A stretch of DNA of 64,000 nt from Geosiphon pyriformis uo1 (GCA_016748015.1 JAAOMT010000094.1:281917-345916); one strand, 5' to 3'. Shown: positions 11,048 to 46,455, counted from the first letter of the stretch. The notes: generated from the sequence alone by a model not told the origin. Numbers and translations: made by a program.

Positions 11048-14000
11048 TTAAGTGTTCAAGTTTGGTTGTTGTTCTATTATAATTATTGGTTTTAAATTTT
11101 GGGGAATATTTTCAGAATTAACTAAAGGGGAATGTATACCAATTTGTGGAATTAATGATTCAGGATTGTTTCTGAAATAATAATGTTTCAATCAATTTCT
11201 ATGTACAACTTTTGCTAGTACTTTGTCATCAAGTCTTAATTTGTATGATCTATTGCCTAGAATTTCGTGAATATAAAATGGTCCATCCTATTTGTTTTAA
11301 AATTTTTTACTCCATTGTTTTTCAGTCTTAGTTCTGTGTAAGAGAACTTTATTTCTAACTTTAAATTTGTTGACAGTTGATGGTAATTTGTTGTTATGTC
11401 TTTCTTTTTGCTAAGCTTAGGAGTGTTCAATATAAGTTGCTGCTATACATTTTTTTTCTTTCAGAGTACTAAAAAGAGTGTAGGCCTTTCTTTTGAGTGT
11501 TTCTTGAAAGTTTTATTTATTAATTAGTTGTACTGGATATGTTTTCACTGTGAAATTAATTGGTAATATTGCTGTCCTTCCATAAGTCAGATCAGATGGT
11601 ATGTGTTTTGTAGTATCTTGTTTTAGTATTCTGTATACTAGTAACACTGATGGAATAAAGATATTTTATTCTTGCTCAAAATCAATTGAGACTTTGGCTA
11701 ATAATTTACACAATGTTCTGTTGAAACATTTTACAAATCTATTTGTTTGAAAGTAATAAGATAATGATAGAAGTCTTTTGACATTAAACCATTCACAAAT
11801 TTCTTGTATCAGGTTGTTTACAAAATGTGTTCCTTGATCAGATAAAAGTTCAATTGGGCATCCATGTCTGCAAATAATGTCTTCATAGATGAAATTTGCT
11901 ACTGATTTTGCATCTGCTCTTTGAATGGCTCTAACTTTAGACTATTTGGTGAGATAATATACTGCAACTGCAATATAACAATTTCTTTGGATTGTAATAG
12001 GTAATGGCCTGACTAAATTAATTCCAACTTTGTCAAAAGGTTGTCCAACTTTGATTGGGTTTAAAGGTTCTGTGGGACAAATTTCTCTTCTTTTTTGACA
12101 ACTATCACAGGATTCTACATATTGTCAAATGTTTTTTTGCATGTGAAGCCAAAAGTAATGTTCAAGAGTTCTTTAAATTGTTCTATCTCTTTCCAGATGT
12201 GCTGAAGATGGGTTTGTATGCATGTTATATAGAATTGTTTTTTTTCATGCTCTTGTATTAATCTGAGTAATTGGTTTGGGTTTTTGCGATTTTTATAATA
12301 AATTTTGTTGTGGTGTATAAAATATTGTTTTGATTGGTGTTGTAAACAATGTTTTTTACTTGGAGACCAATTTTTTGACATGATAAGAGTTTCCAAATAA
12401 TTTTTGATGTTATTGTAATTTCTGAAACCCATTGTTGTTTGGTTTTGTTGGTAGGTTGATATGTTGTGGTGGTGTTGCTGCTGGTATTAATCTTGTTTCA
12501 TCCTTGAAAGACTATCAATATTAGTGTGTAGTTTTCTTGGTTTGTAATGTACAATATACTTGTAGTCTGCTAAGAAATCATTCTATTGAGACTGTTTAGC
12601 ACTTTGTTCTGTTTTTTTTTATTGAGCCATTTGAGGCCAATATTGTTAGTTATAATATCAAATTTTTTTCCATTCTTTAAGTATTGTTAAAAATGTTTAA
12701 GAGCCCAAATAACTGCAGCAGCTTCCAATTCAGTTGATTCATATTTGAGTTTTGTTGGTTTGAGTATTCTACTGGTATAAACAATGACTTATTCCTGGTT
12801 ATTTTCATCCAATTGTAATAGAATAGCACCAAATACTATGTGTAAAGCATCAGTGGTTAGTTGGAACTTTTTGTTGAAGTTTGGGTAAGCAAAAACTGGG
12901 GCTGTTGTCAATTTTGTTTTGAGAGTTTCAAAAGCTTTTTGTTGTTTTTCAGTCCATTGATATGGTACATTTTTGTTGATAAGATAATTGAGTGGTTTAG
13001 CAATTTCTGAAAATTTTTTGATGAATTTTCAATAGTAGAAGGCTAATCCTACAAATCCTTATAGCTCTGTGGTATTTTTAAGAGTTTGAAAGTTTTTAAC
13101 AGTATTGATTGTTCCAGAGTTTGGTTTGACTCCATCTTTGCTAACAATGTGTCCAAAAAAGATTAAGCTTGTTTTTTCAAAGTGACACTTTTTAATGTTT
13201 AATTTTAATCCTGCTTTTCATAATCATTGAAAAACTTCTCGCAGATAAATAAGATAAGCTTCAAAGCTTGGTGAGTATACATCAGTGCCATCAAGATAGA
13301 CAACTACTGATTGCCATAAAAGGCCTTTATATACAACATCCATAAGTCACTGAAATGTCGTTGGTGCATTGCAGAGTTTAAAAGGCATAATATTGAATTC
13401 ATAGTTCTCTCCTTGGGTGGTAAATGCTGTTTTAGGTCTATCTTTTGGATCCATTTCGACTTGTTAGTATCCACTTTTCAAGTCTAAAGTTGAAAAAAAC
13501 TTGGCTTTTCCTAGGGCATCTAACATGTCATCAATTCTTGAAAGAGGGTAGACATCTCCAATTGTAACACTATTCAATTGTTTATAATCAACACAGAATC
13601 TGATTTTTTCGTTTTTCTTTTTAACTAAAACTACTGATGAGGCCCATGGACTTCTTAATGGTTGAATCAATCTGTTATTGAGCATTCTTTGGACCTCTTC
13701 TTTAATAAATTGGTGGCTGGCAGGTGGTACTCAATAAGCTTATTGTCATTTTGGTAGAGCATCTCCTGTATGGATCTGGTGTTGGACAATATCAGTTTTT
13801 CTAAGATCATTGTTGTCTTTTGCAAATATATCAGCAAATTCAGCTATCAATTATTTCAATTGTCTTTGTTGTTAGAGTTTTAAGAGGACCATATTGATTT
13901 TAGAGAGTTTTTTTTCTAGAACATGATAGTTTTTAGTAGTCAAAATAATATTTGGATTTGGTAATAGGATATGTCTCACAATTTCGATGAAATTAGAAAC

Positions 14001-17000
14001 AATTTGAGAGGTTTTATCTTGAAAAATGTTGCTATGTATGATCCCAATTTCTAATTTATTTAATAAAACAATGGAATAGTTGTTGGGATTGTAGAAAGTA
14101 ACTCGAAATTTCTTTATTTCTTTTGGGATATAGATATTTGGAATTGAGATTTCATGTTTTAAACAGATTTGTTCATTGAATTCAAAGATTTGTTGAGTAG
14201 TAGTAGGTTTTAAGCAAGTGTAGATTTTGTGATGTTCTCTAAAAGGTGAAATGGTAATTGGTTGTGGAAGTTGAAAAATCTGGTAAGATTTACTTTGTGT
14301 ATTAAGAGCCATATTTACTGGAACTGTGAATTGTTCAGTTGAACCAAAATCTTGAGTTTCTTTTTCACTTTTTCTTAGTTGTTCTCTGTTGTTAACTGAT
14401 TGTAAACTTGAAATGTTGATTAAGAGTAAGTAAATTGCTTGAGCAATTTTCTCTGCATGCTCAATTTTAAATGGTTTTTCAGTTTCATTCTGTAGCATAA
14501 TAGTAATGTTTTCAGTGTATTCTGCATCTATGACTTCTCTTCTAATATTGATTCCTTTGCTTGCCAATGATGATCTGAATGCAATTTGAACTATTGCTCT
14601 AGGTGGAATTTCAAGAGTGATTTTGAGATTGATTTTTGTCAAAAACTTTAATTGAAGAACCAAAGTATCTTTTTCTAGATATTTTAAATCATATCCAGTA
14701 TTAATTTTGTGTGCTTTTTCTGGTCTGATTCTTTGGCCATGGTTGTCAAAATATTTAAGTTATAGGGGTGGTTGATTTTTAAGAAGATAGATATGAATAG
14801 TTGATAGTTCTTTTACCCATTCAGATACTCCAAATTCGATTTCATTTTTATCATTTTCATCTGGCAGGGGAATGCTAAGAGCATAGTATTCTAAACACCA
14901 TTGGTCATCACAAGGCATAACACATTCTTTACATAATTAAATATTCATTTGCTCTAATCATTGAATTTAAGCTTCTTTGGTTGAGTACATATAACTTGTA
15001 ATTTGGTGGTAGGTTTCTACTTTATCTTCATAATCAAATTCAGCTAACTCTATAGTATACTCAATGTATTCAGCTTCTTTTATTTGGTGGACATCTTCTT
15101 GAGTAGCTCTATTGATTAATGCCATTGTTAAGTTAAAAATCATTTTAGCATCATGAGGATAATAGTACAGTTTATTAAGAGCACTATTATATGCTGCATT
15201 GAATGAGGTTCTTCTTCTCACTTTTTCTGAAATTGATAAGACATATTGAGAGATTTGATCACATACTCCTCTTTTTATTGCAACATCAATCCAGTTGTAT
15301 TCTTTTGGTAGCATATCTCCAAATGTAAGACAAGATGTGTTGTCCTATTTTCCATTTTTTTTTGGGGATTCAAATCGTTCTCTATGGCATGCTTTGCAGA
15401 AGTAACAGGTATGAGTTTCATATTTTTTTTTTGGGGAAATACAGGCTTCTATAGATGAAAGCTTCTTCTTGTAGTTTTTGCATTTTAGTGGAATATATAG
15501 TGGTTTTTTTATGGTTCTGGTGTAAAATATCTAACTTTCTTCCATTTTTTTGATTTTTTAAAAATCTCTTGTTTTGTTTCCTCAGCCTAATTAGATGTTG
15601 ATCCAAGAGCCATGTAGGTTTCAGTAAATGGCATTTCTTTCTTCTCCTCAAAATCGAATACTAGGGCTTTTTCTGAACATTTGTTAAAAGTACCACAAGT
15701 AATAGGTACTATGGTGTATTGTTCTTAGTATTGGGATGCATTCATGATTAGAACTTTGACTGGAATAATGATTTTATCAATGGTAAATAAGAAGTTGTCA
15801 ATTTTTCTTATTGGAGTTTTTTTTATGCCATTAGCTGTAACAATTACAGTTTGGACTGGTCTGTCAACAGTTCTTTGAAGCTGTTGCATTAATTGGTAGA
15901 TAATAATACTTCTAGCTAATCTACTGTCTAGAATTAATTGGATGGGTTTTCTTTTTACTATAGCTTTAGTGCATATAGCAGTGATAGCTTTTTGTTCATT
16001 TACTGTTGTATTACTAAGCAAGAATAGTGATTCATTTGTCTCAAATTCGAATAAAAATATATCTGATAGATTGGCATTTTGGGCAATTTGAGCTGGTAGA
16101 ATTGTATTGTTGGAAGAGTTTGATCTTAGTGCTGTAGCTTTACCTTCAGAAAGTGCAGTTTGTTGAAAATCTGATTCTTCTTGCATTGTTAAATAATTGG
16201 GTTGAGTGTAAAACTGAGTGAGTTTTTGTTAAACAGAATTTCGGAAAACTAGTTAATTATTGGAATTAGATCTGTTGTTGTTTGTTAAAAAACGATTTTA
16301 TGATGTAAATTGGTTTTGTTGAACCAATCTTCTGGTTGGTACTTAATATTGTTGAGTAAATTGTATCTGATATTGCTGAATTGGTAAAGATTGCTGATAT
16401 TGTTGCTGAATTGGTTGTGAAGCTAATTGATAGTAACTGTTTTGATTTTGTGGTCTTGGTGGGTAATAAGTTGGTAATAGGGATTGGTAGTAAGATTGTT
16501 GTAATGAAAAGTAACATTGATTACTCCTGTTTTGTTGGTCTCTTTGCAATTTCCTGCAATCTCATTTCCAGTGTCCTGAGATTTCACAATAATAACAATT
16601 TTGAGGTTAGTTGTTAGATGGTAATCCAAAGTTGTTTTAGTTGCATCATTGTGGTGATTGATATTTTTGTGGTTGTTGCTGCTGTTGTTGTTGGTTTGTA
16701 AAATAGTTTTCAATCTTCTTTGTGAGTTGGTCTATCTTTTTTTCAGCTGTTAAGCTGGTTTTTCTAATAGCAAGATTTACAAATTTTGTGTGGTTGGCTT
16801 CTTCTATAGCCATTTCATAATTCTTTGCATGTTGAATAGCAGTGACCAAATCTTTAGGTGAATGGGAATGCACTTTTTTTATGAGTTTGTTTTTTAATCC
16901 AGCAATAAATTGATCCAAAATTTGGGCATCAGAATAGTAGTCATTGGTTTCCAATTGGTGAATTCTTCTGAGAAGTTTGTTGAACTTCTTTAGGTAGGTC

Positions 17001-18028
17001 ATAATTGATTCACTTGGTTTTTGTTTAATATTGTGAAAGCAATTTTGGAGAGTAATAGATATGTTATTGTCAGTGAATTGTTATAAGAAAGCATCTTTAA
17101 ATGCTTGCCAATTTTCAAAGAGTGTATTCAAGTTTTTAAACCATTCTTCTGCTGTTCCTTGGAGAAAGTATAAAATTGCTTTGAGTATTTTTGCTGTATT
17201 CCATCCATTTGCATCTCCTGCTTTCTGGACTTTGTTAAGTCATTCTTGTGGACTAATATCATTATTTTCACCAGTAAATTCTGGAATCTTTGCAATATAA
17301 GCAGTTGTTATTTCTTCTTTGTTTTTAATAGTTTCTTCTTGTTTTGATTCAGTTTCTTCACTTTCTAAGCTTTCTGAATAATTATTTTCATTTTTCTGTA
17401 AGTAATCAAGAAGATTGGTGCTAGTTGATATTGGTTCTTGCTGTTGAGTAGAACTTTTTGGTGAAGTGAAATCTTCTGGTCTTGAAAATTGAATAAGAGG
17501 TGAATTTGGTGTCTGTGATTAAGCAAGTGAAATTGGAAATGGAGTGACTGAAAGTGGAAGTTTGGTGCTGGTTCCTGGTTCTGAAGTTTGCAAGTATTTG
17601 GCAGTTATCTTTGGTGTCTTTGGAGTGTTTGGAGTGGTACTTAAGTGTTGCTTCAGTTTTTGTTTATTTTTGTTATTTGTTTCTGTTTCTAATTCAAAGT
17701 CAATAGAATATTTAGACTGTACTGGGTAATTTTTTTTACAATACTGGATAATGTTAAAATTAAGTTCTTTGAAGTAGGTGGCAAGTGTTTTACTGTCAAG
17801 ATTTTCAGTTTTTAATCATGAATAGTGCACTAAATTATTGTAGAAGTGGCTTCTAACTTCTGAAATGTTGTAATTTCCAAGAAGATAATTGCTGATGCAG
17901 TTTTCAATATACAGATAAAGTGTTCTTTTAACAATTTTAATTCCGTTTGGGATGTTGAATCTCTGCTTGCAATGGGTATAAATTGACTAATAATACTTTA
18001 GAGTTATTGTGTCTGGTGTGATTATCAC
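11048..18028 (-). pseudogene. Element C gag-pol
   Basis: YIAKIPEFTG capsid start, LILDS protease, Cys-rich module, dUTPase, RT (IRFCVDY, LDLKSGY), RNase H and integrase remnants. Confidence 0.92.
14335..14730 (-). pseudogene. dUTPase domain in C pol
   Basis: Motifs I TGYDL, II RSSLASKG, III VIDAEY, IV EKIAQ, V QDFGST. Confidence 0.9.
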
Positions 18029-18053
18029 TTTAAAGTTGTTTTTGTTGTGTTGT

Positions 18054-18071
18054 TTCTGTAGAAGAGCACCA
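18054..18071 (-). promoter_or_regulatory. PBS of C, TGGTGCTCTTCTACAGAA
   Basis: 2 nt from the 5' LTR; same type as the D PBS. Confidence 0.85.
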
Positions 18072-18073
18072 AA

Positions 18074-18288
18074 TGTTACTGGAGGTTTTTGGTCTCTTTT
18101 TTTAAATGTTGTTAATGTTTGTTTTACTGTAAATTCACGTTCTCAGGAAGTAGTTGAACCTCCAATAACTGAATTTATCTTCAAATTATCTTCTATAATT
18201 TGAACTGCTGGACTTATAAGTGAAATAGCCAATTCTGTGCCAGTTACTTTATGTAATTATATTATAGTAAATGTCAACTCTTTCTCAG
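18074..18288 (-). repeat. Element C 5' LTR, U5-end fragment (remainder 28571-29300)
   Basis: Matches 9242 onward; interrupted by E. Confidence 0.92.
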
Positions 18289-19151
18289 TGTTACTCATAG
18301 AATATAGGAAATATAGTATTATTAGTCAGTAGATATTAGCCAATCAGATGTAGATGTAATAAATGTGAAATTCTAAGATTTCTTTCAAAGGAATTGCAAG
18401 ATTCCAAGAATTTCAAGATTCCCTGATGAGAAATCGCAGAATTCCAGAATTCCAGGATTCTTCTCATCAGAAATTGCAGGATTCCAGAAATTCCAGAATT
18501 CCTGGTGCAAGGAATAGAGAAATTGAGGAATCTCAATTATGTATATATAGCAGTAGGATTAAAAGCTAAAAAAACAAACTTCTCAGTTTAGATTTAATCT
18601 AAACAACTCTCTAAATCACAATTATCTAATAAATAACTATTTGTTATCTCAAAAACTACGTCTACTATCAACTATTCATGTTGATAGTAATTGATACTTA
18701 ACCACATGGGAACAATAGCTCTTAATCATGGCTATTAATGGGATACTAAATTTGCAAATTGTTTTGGCTTATTGCTTTATATTTTGTTATTTTCTTTATT
18801 TTCTTTGATTTTGTTATTGTACACTAACCAATTGATTAAAAGTGCTGATTACTGATGTCAAAGATTGCCTGGTAAAAGACTCCTGCAAGTGGGTAGGACA
18901 CATACAGAAGATATGGATTACTTACTAGAGGATTGCCAGCCACCAAGCCAAGAAAAGAATTGACAGACTTGTGAATCTGGGAAGCTACAGATAAAACAAC
19001 TATTGAATCTCTGTCCATTATACAAAGGACTCATTTGGAAAACCTTTAGATACCAATCACTTAAAAATATTATCAACAACACAAGTAGCTTTTGAGCACC
19101 AAGTTATGAATTTGTTATTTGACCTGAGACCCCAAATAATCAACTGTAACA
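18289..19151 (+). repeat. Element E 5' LTR (863 bp)
   Basis: TGTTAC...GTAACA; GAATTCCAG-type array ~18367-18535; TATATATAG ~18543; followed by the PBS. Confidence 0.95.
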
Positions 19152-19153
19152 TT

Positions 19154-19171
19154 TGGTGCTCCCTGTGAGGT
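19154..19171 (+). promoter_or_regulatory. PBS of E, TGGTGCTCCCTGTGAGGT
   Basis: 2 nt after the LTR end. Confidence 0.92.
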
Positions 19172-19213
19172 ATAATCCTACAGAGAACCAGCACCAACAA
19201 ACACTATTCAAAA

Positions 19214-22200
19214 GTGGCAGAATCAAAAAATATAAGAGCAAACCATTTAGGATTTGCAAAATCTTTATTTCAATACTATTGTCAATACTTGAGATTAAAC
19301 CACAATCATATATCCACCAAATCAGCCTTTAATTTCTATGTCAACAAAAAGATTTTCTCTTTGTTAGGAACACCAGTGAATACTGAATCAGCAAGGGAAA
19401 CTTTCTACAGAGAATTAATTCAAAACACCAACTTACTAATAAATCATAATTTCACATTCATTATTACTGAGATCAACAAAGAAATTGAACATCACATCCA
19501 ACAAAGATATCCAATTACATATGCTAATAAAGACAAAGGAAAACTACAAACACCAGCAGTAACTCCTAGAAAGATACAACTACCTACTTGGAAGAAGACA
19601 AGAGTTGAATCACCAACCAATCTATTTTATTACTATACACTCAGAAGCACCATCAACATTTTATTAACAAGCATGTCCACATCAAATGCAACTTCAGTAT
19701 TTGGATGATTCTCATTCTAAAGTAAACAAAAGAAAACAGAATTATTAGGACCATATGGCAAATACTTTGAAGGATTTAAATTACAATCACCAATGCCATC
19801 AGGAATTCGATCACCGCCGCCTCAATCAGACTTTGGAACCACTACCCCATGAGAACTATCTGAAGAAGAAGAGGAAAAAGAGTTGGAAGATCAAGAATTT
19901 ACTTACCAGAACCCGATCACTGAAAACTCGGAAGTCAAAACACCAAATTTTCAAACCCAGCAAAATTTAAAGTTAGAAAACCCAGAAATCAAAACTCCGA
20001 ATATTTAACCACCACCAAATCAGAACAATCAGAACCCCAATCTAATTAATCAACCAGACTTACCTCCTGTTATCGTCATTAACCCACCACTAGTTGAACC
20101 GATTAGCCAGCCACCACAACAACCACACCAGCAGATTTAACAGCCACTAGTATCACTTCAACAACCACCGCAACCCAACTTAGATTCAATGGCATACACA
20201 CCAATAGCCAAACTCGAGAAATTCACTGGCAAAGAGGACAATGCTTAAGCCTGGATCAATGATGTCACCAAAGCAATTACCACCAATAACTGGGATGATG
20301 CCAGAACCATACAAGTCATCCCCTATTTTTTTAAAAACATGGCAGACTCTTGGTATCACAGTCTAGCCCAGAAATCTCAAAACTTTAATGCCTTTAAGTT
20401 AGAATTTTTGAGGTATTTTAGTAATAACAACAGCATCAACCGCTTGGCAAGTACTTTCACCACCATCAAACAAGGAGACACAGAAGCAGTCATCACTTAC
20501 TTGAGATGCTTCCATAGAAATCTGCACCAAATTCAGGCAATCCAAGCTGAATACTTTACAGTACCACAGATCTTGAACCAATTTATCTGAGGATTGTGCA
20601 GTAGTATCCTCCAGCAAGTACGTTCAATACATCCAGTTGATCTCCCAACTGCCGTGACTCATGCCAGAGATTTTGAAACTGCTTAGTTAGAAGCTAACCA
20701 TGCCCAAGCTGTGAATTTAGTAATAAATAGATCATCTGACCTGGATTCCAAGCTAAAACAATTTAGTGACAACATCAATTAGAAACTAAAGGGCTACTTA
20801 GCTAACAATCATGCAATTTATCAGCCATCCCAATGACATAATGATTTAAGAAACATGAATCGTTTCCAGAATCAATCACATCCAGGATCATCCACTAATT
20901 AGTCACGACAGCCAGAAATGTGTGTCTGCTACAACTGTGATAAACAAGGGCATATTAGGACAAACTGCCATACTTATAGCAACTCACGATCAGAAAATCA
21001 TTATTGAAACCCTGATTGCCAGTTTTAGACTCCGAATTACCAATCCAATCAAAAGCAATATCAAAATGCTTACCTGCCTATAATGCAGCAACCAATTTAT
21101 TAGTCAACAATATATCAACCACCAATTTATCAGCTGCAGCCATCAACAATTTATTAATTGCAGCCACAAGTTATTTATTAGCCACAGCCTCAAGTAATTT
21201 ATCAACTCCAACAAGTTCAAATGCCGCACCAAAACTCAGTTACAATAACATCAGAAAATCCAAGATCCAGAATTACCCAAAACTGGAGATCAGCAATAGT
21301 TGTTAATCAACTGATCCCCAGTTCATTAGGCCAACAATCAGAATCTCGTCAGCAGGATTTGGGTATCAGTTCCATCCAAAACCCAAATTCCCAGAACTAT
21401 TTAAGTCTCTTGGTTATCCCAGAAGATGTTACCTCTAACAATCCAGAACTCAATCAACAACCAACAATACTTACCAACAACATCCCACCAGTAATCATCA
21501 CCAATGACAAGTCTTTAACAGCCATCTTTCCATTTGAACTCGAGGAAGTTATGTCAGTTCTCTTATTTAGTAAAGCAGCTCTAGAAGAAAAACCCATTAC
21601 TGTTATGTACACTAATGCGAAAGTTGATGGCCATTCCATCAAGTTAATTCTTGACAGTGATTCAGCAGACAGCATCATCACACAACAACTCATGGATCAA
21701 TTAGGTCACTGAGTTGATCAAGCTGTCAGCACTAGAATCATCACTGCCGATGGCACCACAAAAACGCCTATTGGTGAAATTGATGACTTCCCAATTAAAG
21801 TTAATGGTATCATTACTTCTATCAAAGTCTTGGTGATGGAAGTGACCCAATACCAAGCACTAATGGGCAATGATTAGTTGTCTAAAAACAATGCTATCCT
21901 TGATTGGACCACACAGGAGCTCCAGCTCAGCCAAAATAGCCAACACACGCGAGTATTGGCAACATGTGGCCATTTCAAACCTAACAATGTCATGACATCA
22001 GCACTGCTTATTGATCTCGGGAAAGAAAAACTAAAGCCTACTTAGGAGGTGTACCAAGTATCATGGGCCAATGTCAACCACAATGAACTGCCACCAATAC
22101 TTGCCTGGGACAACAATAACAATAGAAAGGAGGAACAAGGAAAAAAACCTACCTGTGGAACCACTATCAACACTTGGACTGACAACAAAGACCACCATGA

Positions 22201-25200
22201 CCTACCACTAATACTATCATGGAATGACAACCCTAAAAGAAAGCAAAAAGAAGAACTTATCTGGAAAACGGACGACCTAACCTAGACCAACAACAATGAA
22301 AAAGAACCAACACCAAGCTGGGAATGGGAAGAAAACAACAAAGGGAAAGGAAAGGCGAAAGAAGAAAAGCCACTGCCAACAAACCCGTATACTTTCTATC
22401 AATACACAACACCACAACAATACATCTATTGCCAACTCAAACTAGTGTGCATCAATTGTGGCAAAAAATTGTTGTTAATGGGCATATGCTGTGATAATGA
22501 TAAAGAATATCAGATGACAACCAAGCTCTATTGCCACGCATGTCTTATTGAATGTTTTGGAAGACCAAAACGAATGGGAAAATGGAATAATACACCATGT
22601 TTAGTCTGTAAAGAAACTCTTCTTGATGAAAGAATATGGAATGACATTCCTGAGAGAGGAGGAACGTGCAACATTTCCTGTCAATACACGATCCTCATTA
22701 GTGACTAGATTGAAAAAGGGACACCAATAGAAGCCATTTGGAGAAGAACTGTACAGTGATTGGACAGTTGTCCACACGATGATGATGAATTATGGCGAAT
22801 GACAATTGCCAACATTAAAGGTGCATCACTAGAAGAAATCAGAACAATTAAAAACAACCCACTAGAACCTATTGAGCTTGACTGGGATGCAGAGCCAGTT
22901 ATAAATTTTCTGGAACCAGAAGAGTTCCATAAACACTACCAAAACTTGGCACCCACTAGAAAAGAGCAAGAACAATGGCTAGCATAGTTGAATACCAGAC
23001 TGTGTTGCCATTGTTTAATTCTCAGTGACTTTGAATATTGTGACAATTGTGACTTCATTTACAATCTACCACCACGTATGATCTACATGATCCCCAAAGA
23101 TAAAGAACCAATCAGCAGCTGTGCATTGGAGTCAGAATTACTGTTCGATCCCAATTCAAACTCCAACAACAATGACGACGAGAATAACAATTCCAGCTCC
23201 ATTCAAAATAGCAATGACAATAACAACAATATCAACACAGATTCAAACTCCAACTCAAACTATGAACAATATATCGTGCTTTCTGATCTTACCAAGGAAC
23301 AAGAATTGAAATGGTTCAGTGATAATAATGAAGGTATTATGCCAGAATGTGCGCATGATACTGATGCCAGATTTGATTTGAGGTATCCAGGAAAAGATGC
23401 CATCAAATTGGAACCACATTTATGCATCTGCATTGATCTGAAAATAGTGCTGGAAATCCCAACAACAACAATGGTTCAACTAACATCCCAGAGTAGTTTA
23501 GCAAAAAAGAGATTAAAATAAGAGGAGGAATAATTGATGCAGAATATGTAGGAAATATCATTGCCATGCTACAAAATAACTCAGAAAAGGCCTATATAAT
23601 AGAGCCAAACAAAAAGATAGCACAGACAATATTCTTACCTTTGGTTAAGATAGCTCAGTTAGTACTAGTGGGAAACAGGGAAGAGTTAGGAATAACAGCA
23701 AAAGGGATACAGGGATTTGAGTCAACAGATAGAATAGATGTACCAGTTAATATGGCAGAGAAAAAAATTGTTGGCCAAGAAGAAATTATCTCAACCAGTC
23801 AAGCTATTTCCATTCCACCATATAGCCAGTACATGCTAGCAATAGAAAGGAAAAAAAAGGAACAAGAACAGATTTTTGAAGCTGAAGCAAATCTTTGTGA
23901 ATCAGGAAAGATTAGACTAATCAATCTCCACATACCAGCCAAAAGCTATAGCTGCATAAAAATTCCTATCTATAACAATACTGGCAATGTCATCAACATA
24001 CCAGAAGGAACTACTATCAGATATTTAACCACAGAAATAGAAGACCAACCACCAAACCCCATTCCAGACTTTCCACAACTTTGTGAATATGTTGACATCA
24101 CATCATAAACAATCTATGAATGAGATGAATGTTATTTGCTCCAATCAGAACAATTAGAACAAATGAACATGGGAAATCTAGACCCACTACAATGTATGCA
24201 GCTCAAAATGTTATTTAACAATTTTAATGACATCTTTGTCAGCGAAAATGAGTTTGGCCGAACTGATATTATCCAGCATCAGATCAAGACTGGAAATGCA
24301 ATGCTAATCAAACAGCAAGCATACAGAGTACCACCAACCAGCCATGAAATCATTTGTCAAGAGATTAACTGAATGCTTGACAATGGATTACTTCAGCCAT
24401 TAATGAGCCTATGGTTGTCACCAGTAGTACTTGTCCATAAGAAGAATGGAAAAATCCGATTTTGTGTGAACTACAGGAAACTCAATGGTGTAACTCATAG
24501 AGACAGCTATCCAATTCCACAGATACAAAAACTATTCGATGCTTTTGGTGGAAACAAATAGTTTTCAATGTTAGACTTAAATAATGGTTACTGACAAGTA
24601 GCCATGGATCTAACTAACAAAGAAAAAACAGCATTCACCACAAGAAAGAAAAATTTTGAATTTGAAGTCATGTCATTTAGCTTGATGAATGCTTCAGCCA
24701 CATTTCAACAGCTAATAGAAATAGTATATACCAGCTTATTATGGAAATCAGTAGTAGTTTATCTGGACAACACCAATGTGTTTTCAAAAACCTTTGATGA
24801 CCATTTATATCATCTCCAACAAGTGTTCAAAAGACTAAGATGAGCAGGATTAAAATTGAATGCAACAAAATGTTTCTTTGGCAAAACAGAACTCAAGTTC
24901 TTGGAGCATATAGTGAGCAAAGATGGCATTAAGATGGATCCAGATAAGATAGAGATAATAAAGAAATTTCCAGTACCAACCAACATGACCAAGTTAAAAT
25001 CATTCTTGGGATTTGCAAGCTACTATTGCCACTTTATCAAAGATTTTTCTAAGATAGCACAGCCATTCAATCAGCTCCAAACCAAGAATGTAAAATATGA
25101 ATGGACTAAAACCCAGCAAAAAGCTTTTGACATCTTAAAAAAAAGTTTATTTAAGCTCTGGTATTGATCTATCCAGATCATAGCAAATCATTCATTATTA

Positions 25201-27007
25201 TCACTGATGCATCAGGCCAAGCATTGGGAGCAGTATTATCTTAGAGAAGACCAGATAGAAAAGAACATCCAGTTACATATGTCAGCCGAGGTTTAATACC
25301 AGCCAAAAAGAACTATGGAACACCAGAATTAGAACATTTAGCAATTTATTGGGCAGTTATGAAATAAAAAAAATACTTAAGCCAAAAGTTTGAGATATAC
25401 ACAGACCACAAAGGATTGACATCACTTCAAAAACAAGAATTTGGAGACAGAAGACAGTCAAGATGGAAAATGACACTTTCGCCATATACTTATACCATAT
25501 ATTATAAAAAAAGAAAAGACAATGGAAATGCCAATGGTTTGTCATGAATGAGACAAATCTAAGAACATTTTGACCCAAAAATATAATAAAACTAGAACAA
25601 TACCAACAAAAAATAGAACAAAAGATGAACACACAAAAATACCAACAACTTTAACATTATATAAATACTTAACAGTTTAAGGAAAAATTATCTCAACTGA
25701 AACAAAAGAGGATCAAACAACAATCAAAATATTTTATCACTCATCAAAATAGACTTTATCGGAAGAACAGAAAAGATTCAGATCAATTAATCAAAGTAAT
25801 TACAGAACTGAAAAAAGAGACAATACTGTTTAACATGCACTCAGATCCAACTGCAGGACATTTTCATAAAGAAGCAACCATAGAAAGAACCAAAAAGAGA
25901 TACTATTGGCCATCAATGTATCCAAATATCATACAATATGTGCAAAATTGTAATACTTGTCAAAGAAAAGAAGGAACAAGACCTAGCAAACCATTAAGAC
26001 CAATTAAAGTGGGACAACCATTTGACTGCATTGGAATCGACTTAGTTGGATCATTGACAATTACCAGCAGAGACAACAGATATATTGCAGTAGCCATGGA
26101 CTATCTTACTAAATGGCCAGAAGCAAAAGCAATTCAAAAAGCGGATGCAGAATTCATTGCTGAATTTGTTCATTAAGAATTAATCTGCTGACATGGATGT
26201 CCAAAAGAATTATTGTTAGATCAAGGAACTCACTTTGTGAACAGAACACTAGTAGAACTAAGTCAAAGATTTGGAGTTAAGAGACTATTGTTATCACCAT
26301 ACCATCCACAAACCAATGGACTAGTTGAAAGATTCAATAGAATACTGTGTGAAGCAGTTGCCAAGATCAGTCAAAAAAACCAAAATGAATGGGATTTGTT
26401 TATACCATCAATACTATTTACTTATCAGACAATGAAGCAAGACACTACACAAACAACACCATTTGAATTAGTATACAGTAGAACAGCAACACTACCAGTT
26501 GAGATAGAAGTCAACACTTATCTAACAGAACCAATAATTGTAAACAATTTTCAGGAAATATTACTAAAAAAAACATCTGATTTGATGAAAACTCTAAAAA
26601 ACAAGCAATGAAGAGCAGCTGATAACATTAAAAAGGCACAAGAGAAACAAAAAAAGAGGCACGATAACCAACTACTAGACAAACCAGTTGAATTCAAGAT
26701 TGGAGACAAAGTACTTTTATATCATACTAAAGCGGAAAAACAATGGAATGGGAAATTTAACCCCAAATGGGACAGACCATTTCACATAGAAGAAATTCTA
26801 GGAAATAGAGCTTACAAATTAAGACTGGACAACAAAATTTTAGCCAAAGCAGCACATGGTAATCAACTGAAACCATATTACCAGATAGCATCAGCATTTA
26901 CCAATAACATTCCACAACTGAAAGTACAAAGAATACTAATCCAACCAGATAAGATTCTACAAGACCTAGAACCAATTATTATCATTAACAATAACACGTC
27001 CAATTGA
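19214..27007 (+). pseudogene. Element E gag-pol, originally a single ORF of roughly 2600 codons
   Basis: ORF pieces at 19214, 20339, 21221, 22049, 22445, 22760 and 22988 share one frame. Contains MAYTPIAKLEKFTG, CYNCDKQGHIRTNC, LILDSDS, dUTPase, YLDN, HSDPTAGH..CNTC and PYHPQTNGLVERFN. Confidence 0.93.
23340..23730 (+). pseudogene. dUTPase domain in E pol
   Basis: AHDTDARFDL, SQSSLAKK, GGIIDAEYVG, KKIAQ and AKGIQGFEST are motifs I-V; 1-nt frameshift near 23515. Confidence 0.92.
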
Positions 27008-27031
27008 TCGACAAAAAGAATATATAAGAAC

Positions 27032-27690
27032 ATGGTTGATGTGACAGAAAAAATCAGAAAAATGGAAATTATGAACAATATTCATTCACTAGCCCAACAA
27101 ATTTTTTAATTAATTCAACACCAGAAAATGAAAATTACAATCAATCAACAAACCATTCATTACAAAAATATGGCAAAGAGACCACAACACAAAGCACAGA
27201 AAAACTTAAAAATGTTGTTGACAAGATCATGACCAAGATAAAATTGGCCATAAAAGAACAACAAATAGTCGGATTACACTAAGAACTTATCAAAGAAACT
27301 TGGACTTGGTAGACACAACAATTTCTGAAAAACTATTGTTATTTTCACTTGGGACAACACATAAATATCCAGAATTTATACACTGACAAAACAAAATGGT
27401 TATTTAACACAATAATACTGAGACAACTGGAACAATTTGTGGGAAAGAACAATCTAAACACACAAGCTTGAGCCATTTACCAGCTATATATGAGATTTCA
27501 AAACCAACCAGAAATCTTACTTAACACAGCAATGGATACAGTTACGAGTAATCAATTAGGAAAAATAATCAATGCCCAATTTAAAGAACTACAAACTAAA
27601 ATAACACAAGTAATACTTGAAAAAAAAGTTCAAGAAATAATTCAAGAAGGGGAATTAAAGGAATTAAATTTTGATGAAACTCAATATTAA
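27032..27690 (+). pseudogene. Element E ORF3 (stops and one frameshift)
   Basis: MKITINQQTIHY, YCYFHLGQ, FVGKNNL...AIYQLYMRF and QLGKIINAQFKEL, between the pol end and the PPT. Confidence 0.78.
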
Positions 27691-27703
27691 AAGGAGAGAA
27701 TAA

Positions 27704-28566
27704 TGTTACTTATAGAATATAAGAAATATAGTATTATTAGTCAATAGATATTAGTCAATTAGATGTAGATGTAGTAAATATGAAATTCCAGGATTTCTCT
27801 TAGAGAAATTGCAGAATTCCAGGAATTTCAGAATTCTCCAACAAAAAATCGCAGAATTCCAGAATTCCAGGATTCCTCTTATCAGGAATCGCAAAATTCC
27901 AGGAATTCCAGGATTCCTGGCACAAAGAATAGAAGAATTGAGAAATCTCAATTATATATATATAGCAGTAGGATTAGAAGCTGAAAAGACAGATCTCTCA
28001 GTTTAGATTTAATCTAAGCAACTCTTCAAATCACAATCATCTAATAAATAACTATTTGTTATCTCAAAAACCATGTCTACTATTAACTATTTATGTTGAT
28101 AGTAATTGATACTTAACCACATGAGAACAATAGCTCTTAATCACGGCTATTGATGGGATACTAAATTTGCAAATCACCTTGGCTTATTGCTTTATATTTC
28201 ATTATTTTCTTTATTTTCTTTGATTTTGTTATTGTGCACTAACCGATTGATTAAAAGCACTGATTACTAACGTCAAAAATTGCCTGGTAAAAAACTCCTG
28301 TGAGTGGATAGGACACATACAGAAAATACGGATTACTTACCAGAGGATTGCCGGCCACCAAGCTGAGAAAAAAATTGACAGACTTGCGAGTTTGGGAAGC
28401 TATAAATAAAACAATTATTGAATCTCTGTTCATTATACAAAGGACTCATTTGGAAAACCTTCAGATACCAACTACTTAAAAATATTATCAACAACACAAG
28501 TAGCTTTTGAGCACCAAGTTACAAGTTTGTTATTTGACCTGAGACCCCAAATAATCAACTATAACA
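27704..28566 (+). repeat. Element E 3' LTR (863 bp)
   Basis: Direct repeat of 18289-19151; preceded by PPT AAAAGGAGAGAATAA. Confidence 0.95.
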
Positions 28567-28570
28567 CCAG

Positions 28571-29300
28571 AAATTGTTCATCATTACTTTGCTGTGAAAG
28601 TCAATTCTTCTGCAGGAATCTTGTCTGTAGGCTACCCTAACAATTATAATAAGAAAAAAAAATAAAAATAAAAAAAATGTAAAAGAAATAGAATTTTGTT
28701 AAGAGAAACGTTTTCTATCCAGGCCTAGAATTACTAACAGTTTATTGAAATTGGTAGCTAATCAATTTCAAAACGTTAGTTGTGTTGAGGGAATTTCAAG
28801 TATAATAATTTAAGGATTTGGTTTTCGAATATTTAATTTTTATTTGATTTTGTAAAAGATAATTTGTTTCAATTAAGATATCTAAAGTAAGATACTATAA
28901 TAAGATATAGAAAGGATATATTTTCTTGAAGAGAGAAGCTCTTCTTTTATACAACTTGTTATAATACTAGTCTTTGAACTTGCACTTTTCTCTTTGCTCC
29001 AATTTTGGTAAACTAAAGATACATTTTGGTGAACTACAAGTTATTTCTACAAATTATTAATTATTTCGGCCAATTTTCCATTAATTTCGGCGAATTTTGA
29101 CTATATTAAATAGTTTAGAGTATTGTGTAATTTGATCATTTTAATTTCTATAATACAAATTGGGTTATTGATTGAGTAATAATATTTGATAATTTGGTTA
29201 ATTAATAAATGATAATCGAAATGATAATATATGCTACTTAATAATAATAATTATAAAAATAATTTCATGCTAATTAATAGCTAAGATTCCACTAGTAACA
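28571..29300 (-). repeat. Element C 5' LTR, remainder
   Basis: Matches ~9457-10210 with a small deletion; ends GTAACA followed by TSD CTGT. Confidence 0.92.
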
Positions 29301-29304
29301 CTGT

Positions 29305-30070
29305 TAATTTTTTTCTCAGCTTAGTGGCTGGCAATTCTCTAGTAAGCAATTCATAATTTTTATGTATTTTACCCACTCACAGGGGTCTTTTACCAGGCAA
29401 TCTTTGATATTAATAACTCAGTACTTAATCCTTAGAAGTTTAGTAAACCATCAACAAGATATAACAAAAATAAAAGAAGATAAATAAAGACAATTAAGCC
29501 AAGGCAATACAAGTTAGTATTCTGTCAATAGCTGTAATTAAGAGCTATTGTTCCTGTATAGTTTAAGTATCAATTCTTATCAACATTTAGAGTTGATAGT
29601 GAGCAGTTAAATTTGAGATGTTGAATAAATATATTTATTTGATATTTGGAATGATATGGTTTCTAATTAAAAAACAATAACTAATAAATTTCTGTCTGAA
29701 GATTCTCCTTTTTTGTCTTTAATGTTATTGCTATATATACATATTTTCTAGTTTTACAGAATTGCTTTGGATTGTCTGTTTTTGCTAGTTATTGCTTTGT
29801 TTTCTTATATTATAACTAATTATCCTATGTTATAACATGTTATCTGATATTATTACACATTATTTTGTGTTATCCTGTATTATAACACGTTATTCTATGT
29901 TATAACATGTTATTCTGTGTTATCCTGCATTATAATATGTTATTCTATATTATAATATATTATCCAATATTATTGTGTATTATTCTGTGTCCCTTCACAT
30001 TTCATCATGTTTTTTTTTCAGGTCATGTTTTTCATTCTTTTTTTGATAAGCTTTCTTTTTTCAAGTAATA
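29305..30070 (-). repeat. Element B 3' LTR, remainder, with 10-bp array ~29820-29990
   Basis: Matches ~60049-60805; PPT adjoins at 30071-30087. Confidence 0.9.
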
Positions 30071-30085
30071 TTATTTCCTCCTTTT

Positions 30086-30890
30086 TTAATATTGAGCTTC
30101 TGCAAAATTAGTTATGTTTGTTAATAGAACTTTGTTCATGTAATGTTTGATGGTTATGTTAATTATGGCTTTTTGTAGATCTTTAAACTGTTAATTGATC
30201 ATTCGTTCTATGTTGTTGACTGTTACTTTTTTCAAAAATTCATTCAATAGTACATTTGAACAATGTCAGAAAGTAACATATAATCAACATGCTACTTTGT
30301 AGTATAGTGTCAGATTGCTTCTTCCTATGAATTCTTCTACTTGTTACATTGCTTCTTTGTTAAAGGTTTTCTGGTTGTAGTTTCTGTATGGGTTTTTTAA
30401 GTCTAGTTGTTTTTCAATTTTGTAAAACCAATATGTTAGAAGAAATCTTTTTTTCCATTCCTGGACATTTTCTGGTGTCTACTCCCCTGTTTTAGGAAGT
30501 TTGGTTTTATGAGCTAAAGATTCTTTAATTTTTTCTAGCTCGAAGGCCAAATATGTTGTATATAATTGTTTTTGTCTTCTATCTAATTTTTCTACTCCTT
30601 TTTCTTTCTCTTCTTCTTTTTCTCCACATTTTACCCAAGAAGTATATTTAATTTCTTTTTGTAAAATTTCTTTTTCAGGCAGAATGTAGGGATGAAAATG
30701 GTTAGTTCTAGTTGAACTTTTATCATCTTTCTCTTCTCTTTATCTCTATATCTTATTTTTTTTTATCAATTATAATCTCTATTTGAAATATAAATTTTTG
30801 AATTTTATTAAATAATTGTTTAGATAATTTTAAAATTTTGTCTAAAAGATCTATGTTTAAAATTTCTATTGTTTTCTTCTTTGTGGTTTC
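30086..30890 (-). pseudogene. Element B ORF3 (F-type), boundaries approximate
   Basis: NIDLLDKILKLSKQLF..IEIIIDKK and YWFYKIEKQLDLKNPY closely match F ORF3. Confidence 0.75.
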
Positions 30891-30934
30891 AAGGCTTATA
30901 TGTATGTAATATCTAAATTTCAGCACATGTGTAA

Positions 30935-32867
30935 CTATTTTTTGATAATTATGATTGGTTCTATATCTCATAGTATATCTTTTGGTCTGATTAATGGAAT
31001 TTGTGCTCCTAGTTATGGTATTACTAATGTTAATCTTTGTGTTGTTTGATAAATTTTTAAATAATTTTATGTGCTGTCTTTTTTAGGATTCTGTTTTCTA
31101 ATTGTAACTTATAAAATCTGTTTTCTAAAATTTTGTGTATGTGAAATGATCTGTCCCATTTTGGATCAAATTTTCTATTCCACTGTTTTTCCACTTTGGT
31201 ACAATGTAACAGTACTTTGTCTCCAATCCTAAATTCAACTGGTTTATCTGGTAGTTGGTTATTGTGTCTTTTTTTTTGTTTTTCTTGTAACTTTTGGATG
31301 TTATCAGCTGCTCTTTACCATTTGTTTTCTAGCATTTCTATTAAGTCATATGTTTTTTTTAACAATGTTTTTTGGAAATTGTCTTCTGTTATTGGTTTTA
31401 CTGGATATGTATTGACCTTTATCTCAACTAATAATGTTGCTGTTTTATTATATACTAATTCAAATAGTGTTGCTTATGTAGTATCTTGCTTCATTGTCTG
31501 ATAAGTAAATAATACTAATGGTATGAATAAATCTCATTTATTCTGGTTTTCTTGGCTGATTTTGGCTATTGCTTTACACAATATTCTATTATATTTTTTG
31601 ACTAATTCATTGGTTTATGGATGATATGGTAATGATAATGGTTTTTTCTTCCAAATCTTTGATTCAGTTCTGTTAATGTTCTATTCATAAAATGAGTTTC
31701 TTGGTCAAATAATAATTCTTTTGAACATCTGTGTTGACAAATCAGATTTTAATGGACAAATTTGGCAATGAATTTTGCATCTGCTCTTTAAATTGCTTTT
31801 GCTTCTGGCCATTTAATGAGATAATCCATGGCTACTGTGATATATCTGTTCTCTCTGCTAGTTATTGTTAATAGTCCGACTAAGTCAATTCCAATATACT
31901 CAAATGGTTGTTCTACTTTGATTAATCTTAATGGCTTGCTGGGTCTTGTTCCTCCTCTTTTCTAATAAGCATCACAATTTTGAATGTATTAGATGATGTC
32001 TAGATACATAGATGGCCAATAGTATCTATTTTTGGTTCTTTCTATGATTGCTTCTTTGTGAAAATATCTTGCTGTTGGATTGGAGTACATGTTGAATAAT
32101 ATTGTTTCTTTCTCTGGTTCTGTGATTACTCTAGTTGGTTGATCTGAATTCTTTCTGTTTTTCTGATAAAGTATATTTTGGTAAGTAATAAAATATTTGA
32201 ACTGTTGTTTGATATAGTTTTGTTTTTTTTGAGATAATTTCTCCTTGAACTATTGAATATTTATAAAATATTGAAGTTGTTAATATTTTTGTGTATTTAT
32301 CTTTTGTTATATTTTTGGGTTGAAGTATTCTTAGATTTGTTTCATTTATAATAAACTGTTGGCATTTCTGTTTTTTTTTTCTTTTTTTGTAGTGTATGGT
32401 ATATTTAAATAGTGAAAGTTCTATTTTTCATTAAGCATAGTGATTATCTCCAAATTTTTACTTCTAAATTGAAGTCAATTCTTTATGATCAGTGTATATG
32501 TCGAATTTTTGGCTTAAGTATTTTTTCTATTTTATAACTGCTCAATAAATAGCTAAGTGTTCTAATGCTAGTGTTCCATAGTTCTTTTCTGCTGGATTTA
32601 AACTTTGGCTGGCATATGCTATTGAATGTTCTCTTTTATTTGATTCTTTCTGCAATAATACTGCTCCCAATACTTGACCTGATGCATTAGTAGTAATAAT
32701 GAATAACTTACTGTGATCTAAGTAAATCAGTACTGGAGCTTTGAATAAGCTTTCTTCTTAATATGTCAAAAGCTTCTTGCTGGTTTTTTGTCCATTTATA
32801 CTTGGTGTTCTTTGCTTAAAGCTGGTATAATGATTGAGCCAGTTTAGCAAAGTCTTTAATAAAGTGG
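30935..32867 (-). pseudogene. Element B pol 3' part (RNase H, integrase)
   Basis: Colinear with E 25030-27000 (TNASGQVLGAVL, SNPTARYFHKEA, GIDLVG). Confidence 0.88.
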
Positions 32868-33838: not shown

Positions 33839-34526
33839 TAATTTTCTCCTCAAGACTGAGCTTCATTGAAGTCTAAGCACTATCTGTAATATTAAAATGG
33901 TGGTCCAAGATAATTGAAATGATCTGGTCTGAAAACTGTTAAAATTTCAGTTCTGTGAGCTTTCCAATATATTGAATCTTCATTGGATGGAGTATTGAAT
34001 TTTGTAGGACATTTTTACAAGTATTGAATAAATTATAGAGTTTAAATGCTGCTTTAAGTTTATAGCAAGTGTTTGTTGGTCCAGCTGCTGTCTTGAATTC
34101 ATTGTGAATTTGTTTTTGTATAGCCTTAGAAGTGATATTGGTTGCTTCAAGTTCCAGTTTTTGTTCATAAAGTGTTTTTCCAATATGAAAATATCTATAT
34201 ATATAAGTATATTTATTGTTCTGTTCATTAAAAAATAATAGAAGTTTTTGTTAAATTGTGGCATTTGATGAAATGTTAATAGGAGCAATTAAAAGATTTT
34301 CTTTCAGTGCTTGCTTTAAAAGTTCTGGTAACTTATTTTCAGAATAACTTCTTGTTTTTCTTTTATAGAGGTGATAGTTCTGAGAATTATTAACTACTAA
34401 AGCTGTGATTTCTTTTTGAATGTAATTAATTTGACTTTTATTAATCGTTATTGATAAGTCAAGAAGTGTTTTCAAAGCTAACATTAATTTTTGGGATATT
34501 TGTTGGATATTTCGGGGAATAATCAT
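33819..34526 (-). pseudogene. Element D ORF3 (236 codons, three internal stops)
   Basis: MIIPRNIQQISQKLM..LSITINKSQINY..YRYFHIGK..KAAFKLYNLF..YIGKLTELKF, all in one frame. Confidence 0.82.
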
Positions 34527-37383: not shown

Positions 37384-37385
37384 TT

Positions 37386-37403: not shown

Positions 37404-37445
37404 TATAAATCCACAAAGACAGAGCACCTCCAAAAATACATAAAA

Positions 37446-46451: not shown

Positions 46452-46455
46452 CTAT

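Follow-up and report, generated by a model that had tools for sequence, protein, structure and literature searches.

How does a Ty3/gypsy retrotransposon supply an integrase that is not part of its Pol polyprotein? The question is raised by 64,000 nucleotides of DNA from Geosiphon pyriformis uo1 (GCA_016748015.1 JAAOMT010000094.1:281917-345916), referred to here as the window, which holds a nest of five long terminal repeat (LTR) elements of the Ty3/gypsy type (B-F) and a sixth element (A) outside the nest. Element E is the only uninterrupted copy among B-F. The elements represent a decayed Ty3/gypsy lineage with three open reading frames (ORFs), in which the integrase is likely a free protein made from its own start and likely joins the particle outside Pol. 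The three frames, the stop after RNase H, the coding constraint on the modules, the 4-bp target-site duplications (TSDs) with a pyrimidine-purine centre, and the reverse transcriptase (RT) clade are established here.

The integrase has a separate reading frame

In all six window elements, ORF1 stops 4-5 codons past the end motif of RNase H, and the integrase follows as an ORF of its own. The spacers between stop and integrase vary in length (62 nt in E, 30 in B, 10 in F, 54 in C, 56 in D and 71 in A) and fall in three different frames. None of them contains an ATG, and their G content is 0-10%. The integrase opens with ATG in four of the six elements (E, F, C and A) and with ATA in the other two (B and D), and the position of the start Met is kept between families.

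The same end point is found in database proteins, referred to here by P numbers. Among the matches listed are undamaged proteins, 41-53% identical to the RT-RNase H of F, whose C-terminus falls at this point. Of 67 further cluster members, 41 have the RNase H end motif, and each of these stops 1-3 residues beyond it; Rhizophagus irregularis models of 1577 and 1528 residues are among them. Four R. irregularis models (P0408, P0413, P0417 and P0418) are unspliced and end two residues past the motif. The tree uses 105 database rows, to which a search for long relatives contributed (the best 120 of 2,217 matches were examined); 16 Cordylochernes models, in which RT is repeated, were excluded. Thirty rows end within 30 residues of the motif (29 assigned by rule, P0341 by eye), 54 continue into integrase, 12 have a tail but no integrase, and 9 are incomplete. 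In seven proteins (P0301, P0323, P0326-P0329 and P0331), RNase H is followed by a tail of 166-396 residues with no immediate stop. These tails are Cys/His-rich or acidic, and six contain a Cys/His cluster.

Against solved structures, the RT scores highest with Ty3 (350 bits; next 239), compared to 149 bits for foamy virus and 83 or less for those of the murine leukemia virus (MLV) type. In a FastTree tree of 111 rows, all 30 motif-ending rows and the window elements fall in one group of 48 rows. An IQ-TREE analysis was carried out with 86 of these rows, after 25 near-duplicates, incomplete models or models with repeated RT were dropped; it was a short search with midpoint rooting, with support from the Shimodaira-Hasegawa-like approximate likelihood ratio test (SH-aLRT) and not the bootstrap, and no named reference element was among the rows. 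It finds a clade of 47 rows (SH-aLRT 99), made up of 42 without fused integrase, three with fused integrase and two incomplete, and these 42 are all the rows without fused integrase. Named members come from Rhizophagus clarus, R. irregularis and Calcarisporiella thermophila. Elements B-F and the protein P0136 form a subclade of six rows (SH-aLRT 99). Five chromodomain-bearing matches lie outside the 47-row clade, in a tree that has no named chromovirus.

Overall organization of element E

The features of element E are as follows (all on the + strand).

18289..28566 (+), element E, the only uninterrupted copy among B-F
18285..18288 (+), left target-site copy TCAG; the right copy, CCAG, is at 28567-28570 (4-bp TSD)
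18289..19151 (+), 5' LTR, with TGTTAC...GTAACA ends
19154..19170 (+), primer-binding site, fully complementary to the 3' 17 nt of an elongator-type tRNA-Met(CAT)
19214..20188 (+), N-terminal Gag extension; conserved domain to about 19560, then a low-complexity linker
20189..20800 (+), capsid domain, opening at an in-frame ATG
20927..20968 (+), CCHC zinc knuckle
21030..21560 (+), Q/P/Y-rich linker
21596..21904 (+), aspartic protease (Pfam)
22397..23101 (+), Cys module, with 9 + 5 conserved cysteines on either side of a helical bundle
23333..23730 (+), dUTPase, with a frameshift near 23510
23731..24105 (+), post-dUTPase domain, conserved in B-F and P0136
24190..25562 (+), RT and RNase H, with a frameshift near 25150; ORF1 ends with TAA at 25560-25562
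25563..25624 (+), ORF1-integrase spacer, 62 nt, A/C-rich, ATG-free
25625..27007 (+), ORF2, the stand-alone integrase, with its own ATG, a YPYY-like N-terminus, HHCC, DDE core and GPF/SH3
27032..27690 (+), ORF3, with a frameshift near 27170
27689..27700 (+), polypurine tract
27704..28566 (+), 3' LTR

The two LTRs of E are 863 bp long and 89% identical. Searches with Pfam recognize Retrotrans_gag, aspartyl protease, dUTPase, RVT_1, RT_RNaseH, Integrase_H2C2, rve and SH3_Tf2-1 in E, and give no Chromo match. Only a short tail follows the integrase SH3 domain in E, F, D and A. Spuma_A9PTase has a weak match before the RT of E (E = 0.007), below the cut-off. A tblastn search with the modules of E finds the same order in B-F: capsid, protease, Cys module, dUTPase, post-dUTPase domain, RT, RNase H, integrase and ORF3. 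All five also carry the N-extended Gag, and the CCHC knuckle is found in E, F, C and D and is damaged in B. The RT sequences are 81% identical between C and D, 69% between E and B, and 60% between E and F.

These observations bear out much of a preliminary description of this DNA, which had given the common module order of B-F, the 4-bp TSDs and the lack of a chromodomain. Other parts of it need revision. It placed a separate ORF3 after the integrase, which stands, but missed that the integrase is itself an ORF, the most distinctive trait of the lineage. It listed five elements; a sixth, element A, shares the split integrase, without the Cys module and dUTPase. It called E the cleanest copy; E is the only uninterrupted one, but has 34 in-frame stops (29 in ORF1 and five in the integrase) besides the three frameshifts. 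The TGTTAC ends that it listed are present and fit the ordinary Gypsy TGTNR pattern (PMC2836005, in part). Its triple zinc module is real as a module of conserved cysteines, with zinc binding deduced only from their spacing.

The Cys module, dUTPase and post-dUTPase domain

A profile built from the five window Cys modules matches 402 proteins with E <= 0.001 among 1.84 billion. In the alignment, Cys makes up 70-97% of fourteen columns, of which nine precede and five follow a helical region. Tyr is the usual replacement, which fits the prediction from G-to-A decay. Among the best 150 matches, 75 also have the protease sequence and 36 the N-terminal half of the dUTPase, so the modules co-occur beyond the window. 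One match is P0136, an unbroken frame of 1064 residues on a non-Geosiphon ENA contig, which is 31-43% identical to the window copies and has the linker, protease, Cys module, dUTPase, post-dUTPase domain and RT in a single frame. Nine of ten matches that were looked up are Geosiphon gene models. One such model, P0192, is a chimera of an apparent long interspersed nuclear element (LINE)-type ORF with the Gag-protease-Cys region of the lineage.

Between families, the Cys module shows an excess of third-position transversions in three of four pairs (p = 0.009, 5e-6 and 0.002), as does ORF3 (p = 0.04, 0.008 and 0.005). The excess is present in both pairs compared for the post-dUTPase domain and in the E-B pair for the Gag extension (p = 0.015). 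The Cys module, ORF3, the Gag extension and the post-dUTPase domain are under coding constraint.

The AlphaFold2 model of the Cys module contains a confident helical bundle (pLDDT, the predicted local distance difference test score, 87-96 at residues 81-150; mean 74.6). The module has no Pfam match and no significant fold match in the PDB (Foldseek, VIA wide) or BFVD. The best Foldseek match is GATA3 (E = 0.4), and the best VIA match has a Z score of 6.6 and a root-mean-square deviation of 2.1 over 53 residues, in the helical part only. The absence of fold matches, here and for ORF3, is no proof of a new fold. From the number and spacing of its cysteines, the module likely has three zinc sites and is a candidate new zinc-binding domain. 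A word-indexed search with the Cys region of P0136 returned only P0136 itself, and locus scans of viral and metagenome contigs found no relative with the module; the seven loci returned are dUTPase matches. One locus, L006:886-2276 on a metagenome contig, is an unrelated Gypsy fragment with a dUTPase between RNase H and integrase. The W-x-GP-CWC knuckle of element A (see below) and the Cys/His tails of relatives were rejected as homologues of the Cys module (hhalign probability under 1%).

The five dUTPase motifs, including the motif-3 Asp and the C-terminal Gly-rich arm, are present in P0136, P0122, P0296, P0310, P0311 and P0322, and by sequence the domain qualifies as a trimeric dUTPase. The dUTPase of P0136 alone is closest to the structures 1f7d/1dut (64.6 bits, next 49.7), which we take to be feline immunodeficiency virus dUTPase. 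A five-sequence profile prefers 3p48/3f4f (83.6) to 1f7d (78.1), and a lentiviral origin was rejected as the best match of P0136 is lost in this profile. The idea that the post-dUTPase domain is a second dUTPase fold was also rejected (hhalign probability 1.4%, with D in the wrong frame in the alignment).

The interval between protease and RT is a cargo slot in the lineage. What relatives have there differs: some have nothing but an acidic linker, some a small Cys knuckle or a NUDIX domain, and P0296, P0310, P0311 and P0322 have a closely similar dUTPase but no Cys module. Only the B-F/P0136 subclade has the Cys module, dUTPase and post-dUTPase domain together. The clade relatives P0306 and P0317 have a NUDIX domain (PF00293) in ORF1, a second type of nucleotide-sanitising enzyme beside the dUTPase.

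The Gag extension and ORF3

Counted from the start of the internal region, the conserved Gag extension opens after roughly 40-60 nt; the sequence at this point is AAAGTG in E, B, F and C and AAAGTA in D, and reading frames 5' of it vary between copies. The context of the candidate GUG start is AAAGTGG in E, B and F, and AAAGT(G/A) in C and D. In 11 intact relatives, which are not independent samples, the 1,468 residues that lie over 70 residues ahead of the capsid motif include no Met, where 24 would be expected; other rare residues are not so depleted there. All 11 have a Met within the last 70 residues before this motif. In one relative family, a frame of 1,321 residues starts with V or M depending on the record, and a form of 1,140 residues starts from the capsid Met. 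The window leaders (B not included) are clearly depleted of ATG relative to the rest of each element. The extension is Met-free, with a probable GUG start. Element A has a different, His/Cys-rich type of extension, common to P0301, P0304, P0323 and P0327. Homology between the two types was rejected.

ORF3 encodes a basic, predicted helical protein of about 210-245 residues. By hhalign (96.7%), the ORF3s of C/D and of E/B/F are homologous. In seven sequences there is no transmembrane segment (best 19-residue hydropathy 0.3-1.4, maximum 1.36) and no furin-type R-x-K/R-R site, and the number of Cys residues is 0-4. No Pfam match, including Env, was found. A low-confidence model (pLDDT 57.7) has no fold match, and P0003 has no usable match in the ESM Atlas. 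The ORF3 profile gives 184 matches; the 120 listed are all gene models of G. pyriformis, with identities to F of up to 85%. The ORF3 of element A is unbroken, with 218 residues and many near-identical Geosiphon gene models. Its homology to the ORF3 of B-F was rejected (hhalign probability 0.07%), despite a likeness by eye.

Termini, target sites and comparison with Ginger1

Duplications of 4 bp fit all eight insertions (six elements and two solo LTRs), compared to none of eight for 3, 5 or 6 bp. The two copies are identical in three insertions and differ by transitions only in the other five. The centre of the duplication is pyrimidine-purine in all eight (chance about 8e-6). The target of E, CCAG, is present as a single copy in the other LTR of C, and both LTRs of D have CCAA. 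The target of D falls in codons that specify Arg-Arg in 64 of 109 motif-matching RTs and Arg-Lys in 44. The TSD of solo LTR 1 has CA in its centre on one side and TG on the other. The Arg-Arg codons and this CA/TG pair point to a CG centre before decay, which was probably the original state. Four of the eight targets are compatible with CCGG or CCGT after transitions, and the others fit other N-CG-N words.

The primer-binding sites of A, E and F are perfectly complementary to the final 17 nt of tRNA-Met(CAT). The three tRNA genes with this match all come from viral contigs, and are not host tRNAs. A G1-C72 pair and a TTCG T-loop distinguish elongator tRNA-Met, and the inspected tRNA has both, hence its assignment as elongator type. 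The primer sites of C (18057-18071) and D (51882-51898), both on the - strand, differ from those of A, E and F after a shared TGGTGCTC, and no tRNA match was found for them.

Judged by eye, the integrases of A and D fit the YPYY motif at all four positions, and those of E, B, F and C at three. The GPY/F motif is GPF in D, with one-letter variants in E, F and A. YPYY and GPY/F are shared by Ginger1 with some Gypsy integrases, the YPYY type including Athila/Tat, Cer1, Gypsy-1-I_RO and DGLT-A, and Ginger1 has TGTNR ends and 4-bp CCGG or CCGT duplications (PMC2836005, in part). The window elements resemble Ginger1 in having a stand-alone integrase-type gene with a YPYY-like N-terminus, HHCC, DDE and a GPY/F-like motif, as well as TGTNR ends, 4-bp TSDs and targets compatible with a CG centre. 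In contrast to Ginger1, their integrase is inside an LTR element with RT, and they lack terminal inverted repeats of 40-270 bp as well as an OTU/Ulp1 tail. The integrase is probably of the YPYY type, with a preference for CG-centred targets as Ginger1 transposases have. A kinship with Ginger1 is a lead, which comes from motifs and targets rather than a tree.

The nest of elements and its decay

The other elements of the window are arranged as follows.

9057..60805 (-), element B, outermost of the nest, with the same architecture; broken by C, D and two solo LTRs
9242..29300 (-), element C, in the 3' LTR of B; E lies in its 5' LTR
32868..52871 (-), element D, in the RT of B; contains F
36312..46451 (+), element F, in the RNase H of D
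518..8285 (-), element A, of the wider lineage, with split integrase, a primer site as in E/F, a 4-bp TSD and its own ORF3

In place of the Cys module and dUTPase, element A has a small Cys knuckle of the W-x-GP-CWC type between protease and RT (E = 5e-19). Both solo LTRs are located in the gag of B and have 4-bp TSDs. Solo LTR 1 (56455-57292, +) belongs to the LTR family of E, and solo LTR 2 (58571-59339, 769 bp) has no match among the other LTRs of the window. The outer flanks (1-517, 8286-9056 and 60806-61900) are AT-rich and CpG-poor and look like more decayed sequence. There is an assembly gap at 62513-62532, and the DNA after it retains CpGs.

Between the LTRs of the six pairs there are 537 transitions, compared with 13 transversions. 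The differences affect 80% of CpG sites and 24-30% of cytosines in other contexts. Judged by transversions the elements are young, but they are hypermutated from C to T, in a way that looks like repeat-induced point mutation (RIP) or driven by methylation. For Gigaspora and Mucoromycotina, the relevant part of bioRxiv 2021.03.30.436303 states that no RIP signatures were detected.

Proposed expression and alternative explanations

In the proposed scheme, one RNA would be primed by a Met tRNA. ORF1 would be read from two starts by leaky scanning, the weak GUG giving a long Gag and the capsid AUG a short one. We somewhat favour this step, and leaky scanning with two Gag forms would be the simplest reading of the start data. 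ORF1 would yield short and long Gag-Pol, from which the protease would free RT-RNase H, dUTPase and the Cys module. For integrase and ORF3, ribosomes might stop, scan the short AUG-free spacer and restart, to which we give not quite an even chance; sub-genomic or spliced RNAs are a nearly as likely alternative route. The separate integrase would have to enter the particle through binding to RNA or to Gag-Pol. The freed dUTPase is likely active and would keep uracil out of the cDNA, as motif conservation and the known retroviral dUTPases suggest. The Cys module likely binds about three zinc ions, and the chances are even that inside the particle it would be an accessory that binds nucleic acid or protein. 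More speculatively, ORF3 might be a soluble, trans-acting regulator that binds nucleic acid, for example a restart helper or an anti-silencing factor. Models exist for single steps. Victoriviruses use stop-restart, caulimoviruses reinitiation aided by TAV, foamy virus a separately translated Pol that keeps its integrase, and MLV a glyco-Gag from CUG. None of these is a Ty3/gypsy element, and the likeness is by general description and to one step each. A far-reaching version, in which a Mucoromycota-wide lineage has three cistrons as in plant pararetroviruses, an ORF3 restart helper, a new three-zinc fold in Pol and a free, CG-targeting YPYY integrase that links Gypsy retrotransposons to Ginger1 DNA transposons, would be improbable as a whole.

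Several observations weigh against the proposed reading of a free integrase in a coherent lineage. Every expression step is deduced from sequence. The integrases of B and C are in frame with RNase H, and the ORF3 of E is in frame with its integrase, past one TGA that is possibly a decayed CGA. There is no stop/start overlap in any window spacer, which makes the support for stop-restart weaker than overlaps would. The basal support of the 48-row FastTree group is only 0.455, and the SH-aLRT value of 99 comes from the short, midpoint-rooted search with 25 rows dropped and no named references. Three clade rows have a fused integrase. P0299 (R. clarus) and P0355 (Calcarisporiella) are automated gene models that skip or overrun the RNase H end, although their joins may be real splicing, and P0384 is a metagenome ORF. 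The YPYY proline is missing in E, B, F and C. Leader ATG depletion is unclear in E and F when shuffles are the reference (fractions 0.14 and 0.08), and the transversion excess is not significant for the Gag extension in E-F (p = 0.36) or, in the C-D pair, for the Cys module (p = 0.34) and ORF3 (p = 0.09). Outside Geosiphon, the Cys module was found in one protein only, among the ten matches looked up.

Some of these points also suit a different route, in which sub-genomic RNAs, spliced or initiated internally, serve for integrase and ORF3, or splicing takes out the RNase H stop and rebuilds a normal Pol-integrase fusion. ORF3s of LTR elements typically come from spliced messages (PMC5408684, in part), P0299 and P0355 join RNase H to integrase, and AUG-free spacers would also fit a short leader. 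However, the spacer of D has no AG at all and the six spacers share no acceptor position, although an acceptor could lie further upstream; the four R. irregularis models end unspliced two residues past the motif; and the start Met of the integrase is kept across families, which a fusion would not need. We regard this route as less likely than not. It is scarcely credible that the split integrase and the extra modules are artefacts of heavy C-to-T decay and of chance frames in an ordinary Gypsy element. Transition-heavy decay does make stops easily from CAA, CAG, CGA and TGG, and E has 34 in ORF1 and integrase. However, the stop has the same position in four window families and in undamaged relatives from other sources, the spacers are free in length and frame, the modules have their transversion excess, and P0136 is intact. 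The ends of the intact relatives largely refute this explanation.

The preliminary description had called the lineage complex-retrovirus-like, which holds only as an analogy. It is very improbable that the lineage is an infectious, retrovirus-like agent whose ORF3 is an envelope or movement protein and whose dUTPase is akin to the lentiviral one. The match of the P0136 dUTPase to 1f7d/1dut (64.6 against 49.7 bits) is in its favour, but the five-sequence profile reverses this preference, the seven ORF3 sequences have neither membrane segment nor furin-type site, and the RT scores 350 bits with Ty3 and 83 or less with the MLV type. Another explanation is that the elements belong to a catalogued group, either Ylt1/SN_1006 or the YPYY group with Gypsy-1-I_RO, where RO presumably stands for Rhizopus oryzae, and that their layout is already in Repbase or GyDB. 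Non-chromoviral fungal clades are known (PMC2864245), Gypsy-1-I_RO has a YPYY-type integrase (PMC2836005), the commonest R. oryzae element clustered with no other element (PMC3248453), and most Geosiphon repeats were classed from known sequences (PMC11952901), each according to passages of these sources. In contrast, a full-text literature search, with Repbase, GyDB, subscription journals and the supplements of PMC2864245 outside its scope, found the split integrase and the Cys module undescribed, and no paper on the combination, in agreement with the preliminary description. The 'separate ORF' passages of PMC2582038, PMC5911963 and PMC13468544 do not concern a Gypsy integrase. We consider it unlikely that the layout is already catalogued, and the lineage with a separate integrase frame is a real, probably undescribed variant of Ty3/gypsy.

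Comparison with known elements

The ends, primer site, polypurine tract, domain order and Ty3-nearest RT place the elements in Ty3/gypsy (Metaviridae). They depart from its canonical layout, which is usual in the family but does not define it, and in which integrase is at the end of the Pol polyprotein. Like yeast Ty3, they have TG...CA LTRs, a tRNA primer site, a polypurine tract and the order protease-RT-RNase H-integrase. Unlike Ty3, they have Gag and Pol in one frame, a separate integrase ORF, a third, non-Env ORF, a 4-bp TSD, and a primer site that fits elongator-type and not initiator tRNA-Met. ORF3 has neither the transmembrane segment nor the cleavage site of an Env protein as in Retroviridae and errantiviruses. 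Chromoviruses typically have a 5-bp TSD, which none of the eight window insertions has, and the chromodomain is also absent. Examples of such TSDs are found in PMC2864245 and PMC5014426 (both in part).

A dUTPase inside Pol is shared with PosPlaTy3-5 of Postia, where it lies between protease and RT, the Phanerochaete elements and Tmt1 of Tuber (PMC2864245). The passages of that paper on these elements treat them as chromodomain-containing and mention no Cys module, separate integrase or comparable ORF3. Its passages also report additional ORFs and the non-chromoviral fungal clades Ylt1 and SN_1006. The bdelloid rotifer elements Juno, Vesta and TelKA have a dUTPase between protease and RT and non-Env ORF3s as well; these ORF3s are GDSL, DEDDy, coiled-coil or membrane proteins (PMC5408684, in part), whereas the window ORF3 has no Pfam match. 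The distinct lineage with accessory modules of the preliminary description thus stands as regards non-chromoviral elements with co-occurring, constrained modules, but the dUTPase position, extra ORFs and non-chromoviral clades are already in print (PMC2864245, in part). The dUTPase, an extra ORF and the lack of a chromodomain are known singly, and the distinctive traits are the three-frame layout, the Cys module and the Ginger1-like behaviour that the integrase appears to have. The Met-free Gag extension with its probable GUG start, the primer site that fits elongator-type tRNA-Met and the 4-bp duplications with a pyrimidine-purine, probably CG, centre are further ones. Ylt1 has one ORF that includes the integrase, unlike the window elements. 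It resembles them, as does SN_1006, in being fungal, long (Ylt1, 9,453 bp; PMC5014426, in part) and without a chromodomain.

Implications

LTR retrotransposons bring integrase into the particle by fusion to Gag-Pol. A lineage that makes integrase separately must translate and package the enzyme in another way, here likely by a route that has not been described for Ty3/gypsy elements. An exchange between Gypsy and Ginger1 has been proposed but left open in the absence of a linking lineage (PMC2836005, in part). A stand-alone integrase with Ginger1-like motifs and targets would provide a concrete route for it. LTR elements make up 41.2% of the G. pyriformis genome (PMC11952901, in part). C-to-T hypermutation would inflate LTR-age estimates in this genome, and chimeric models such as P0192 inflate the host gene count. 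At least 184 ORF3-like and 402 Cys-module-like proteins are in the databases, every one of those checked except one being Geosiphon 'hypothetical proteins', so that recognizing these modules cleans the gene set.

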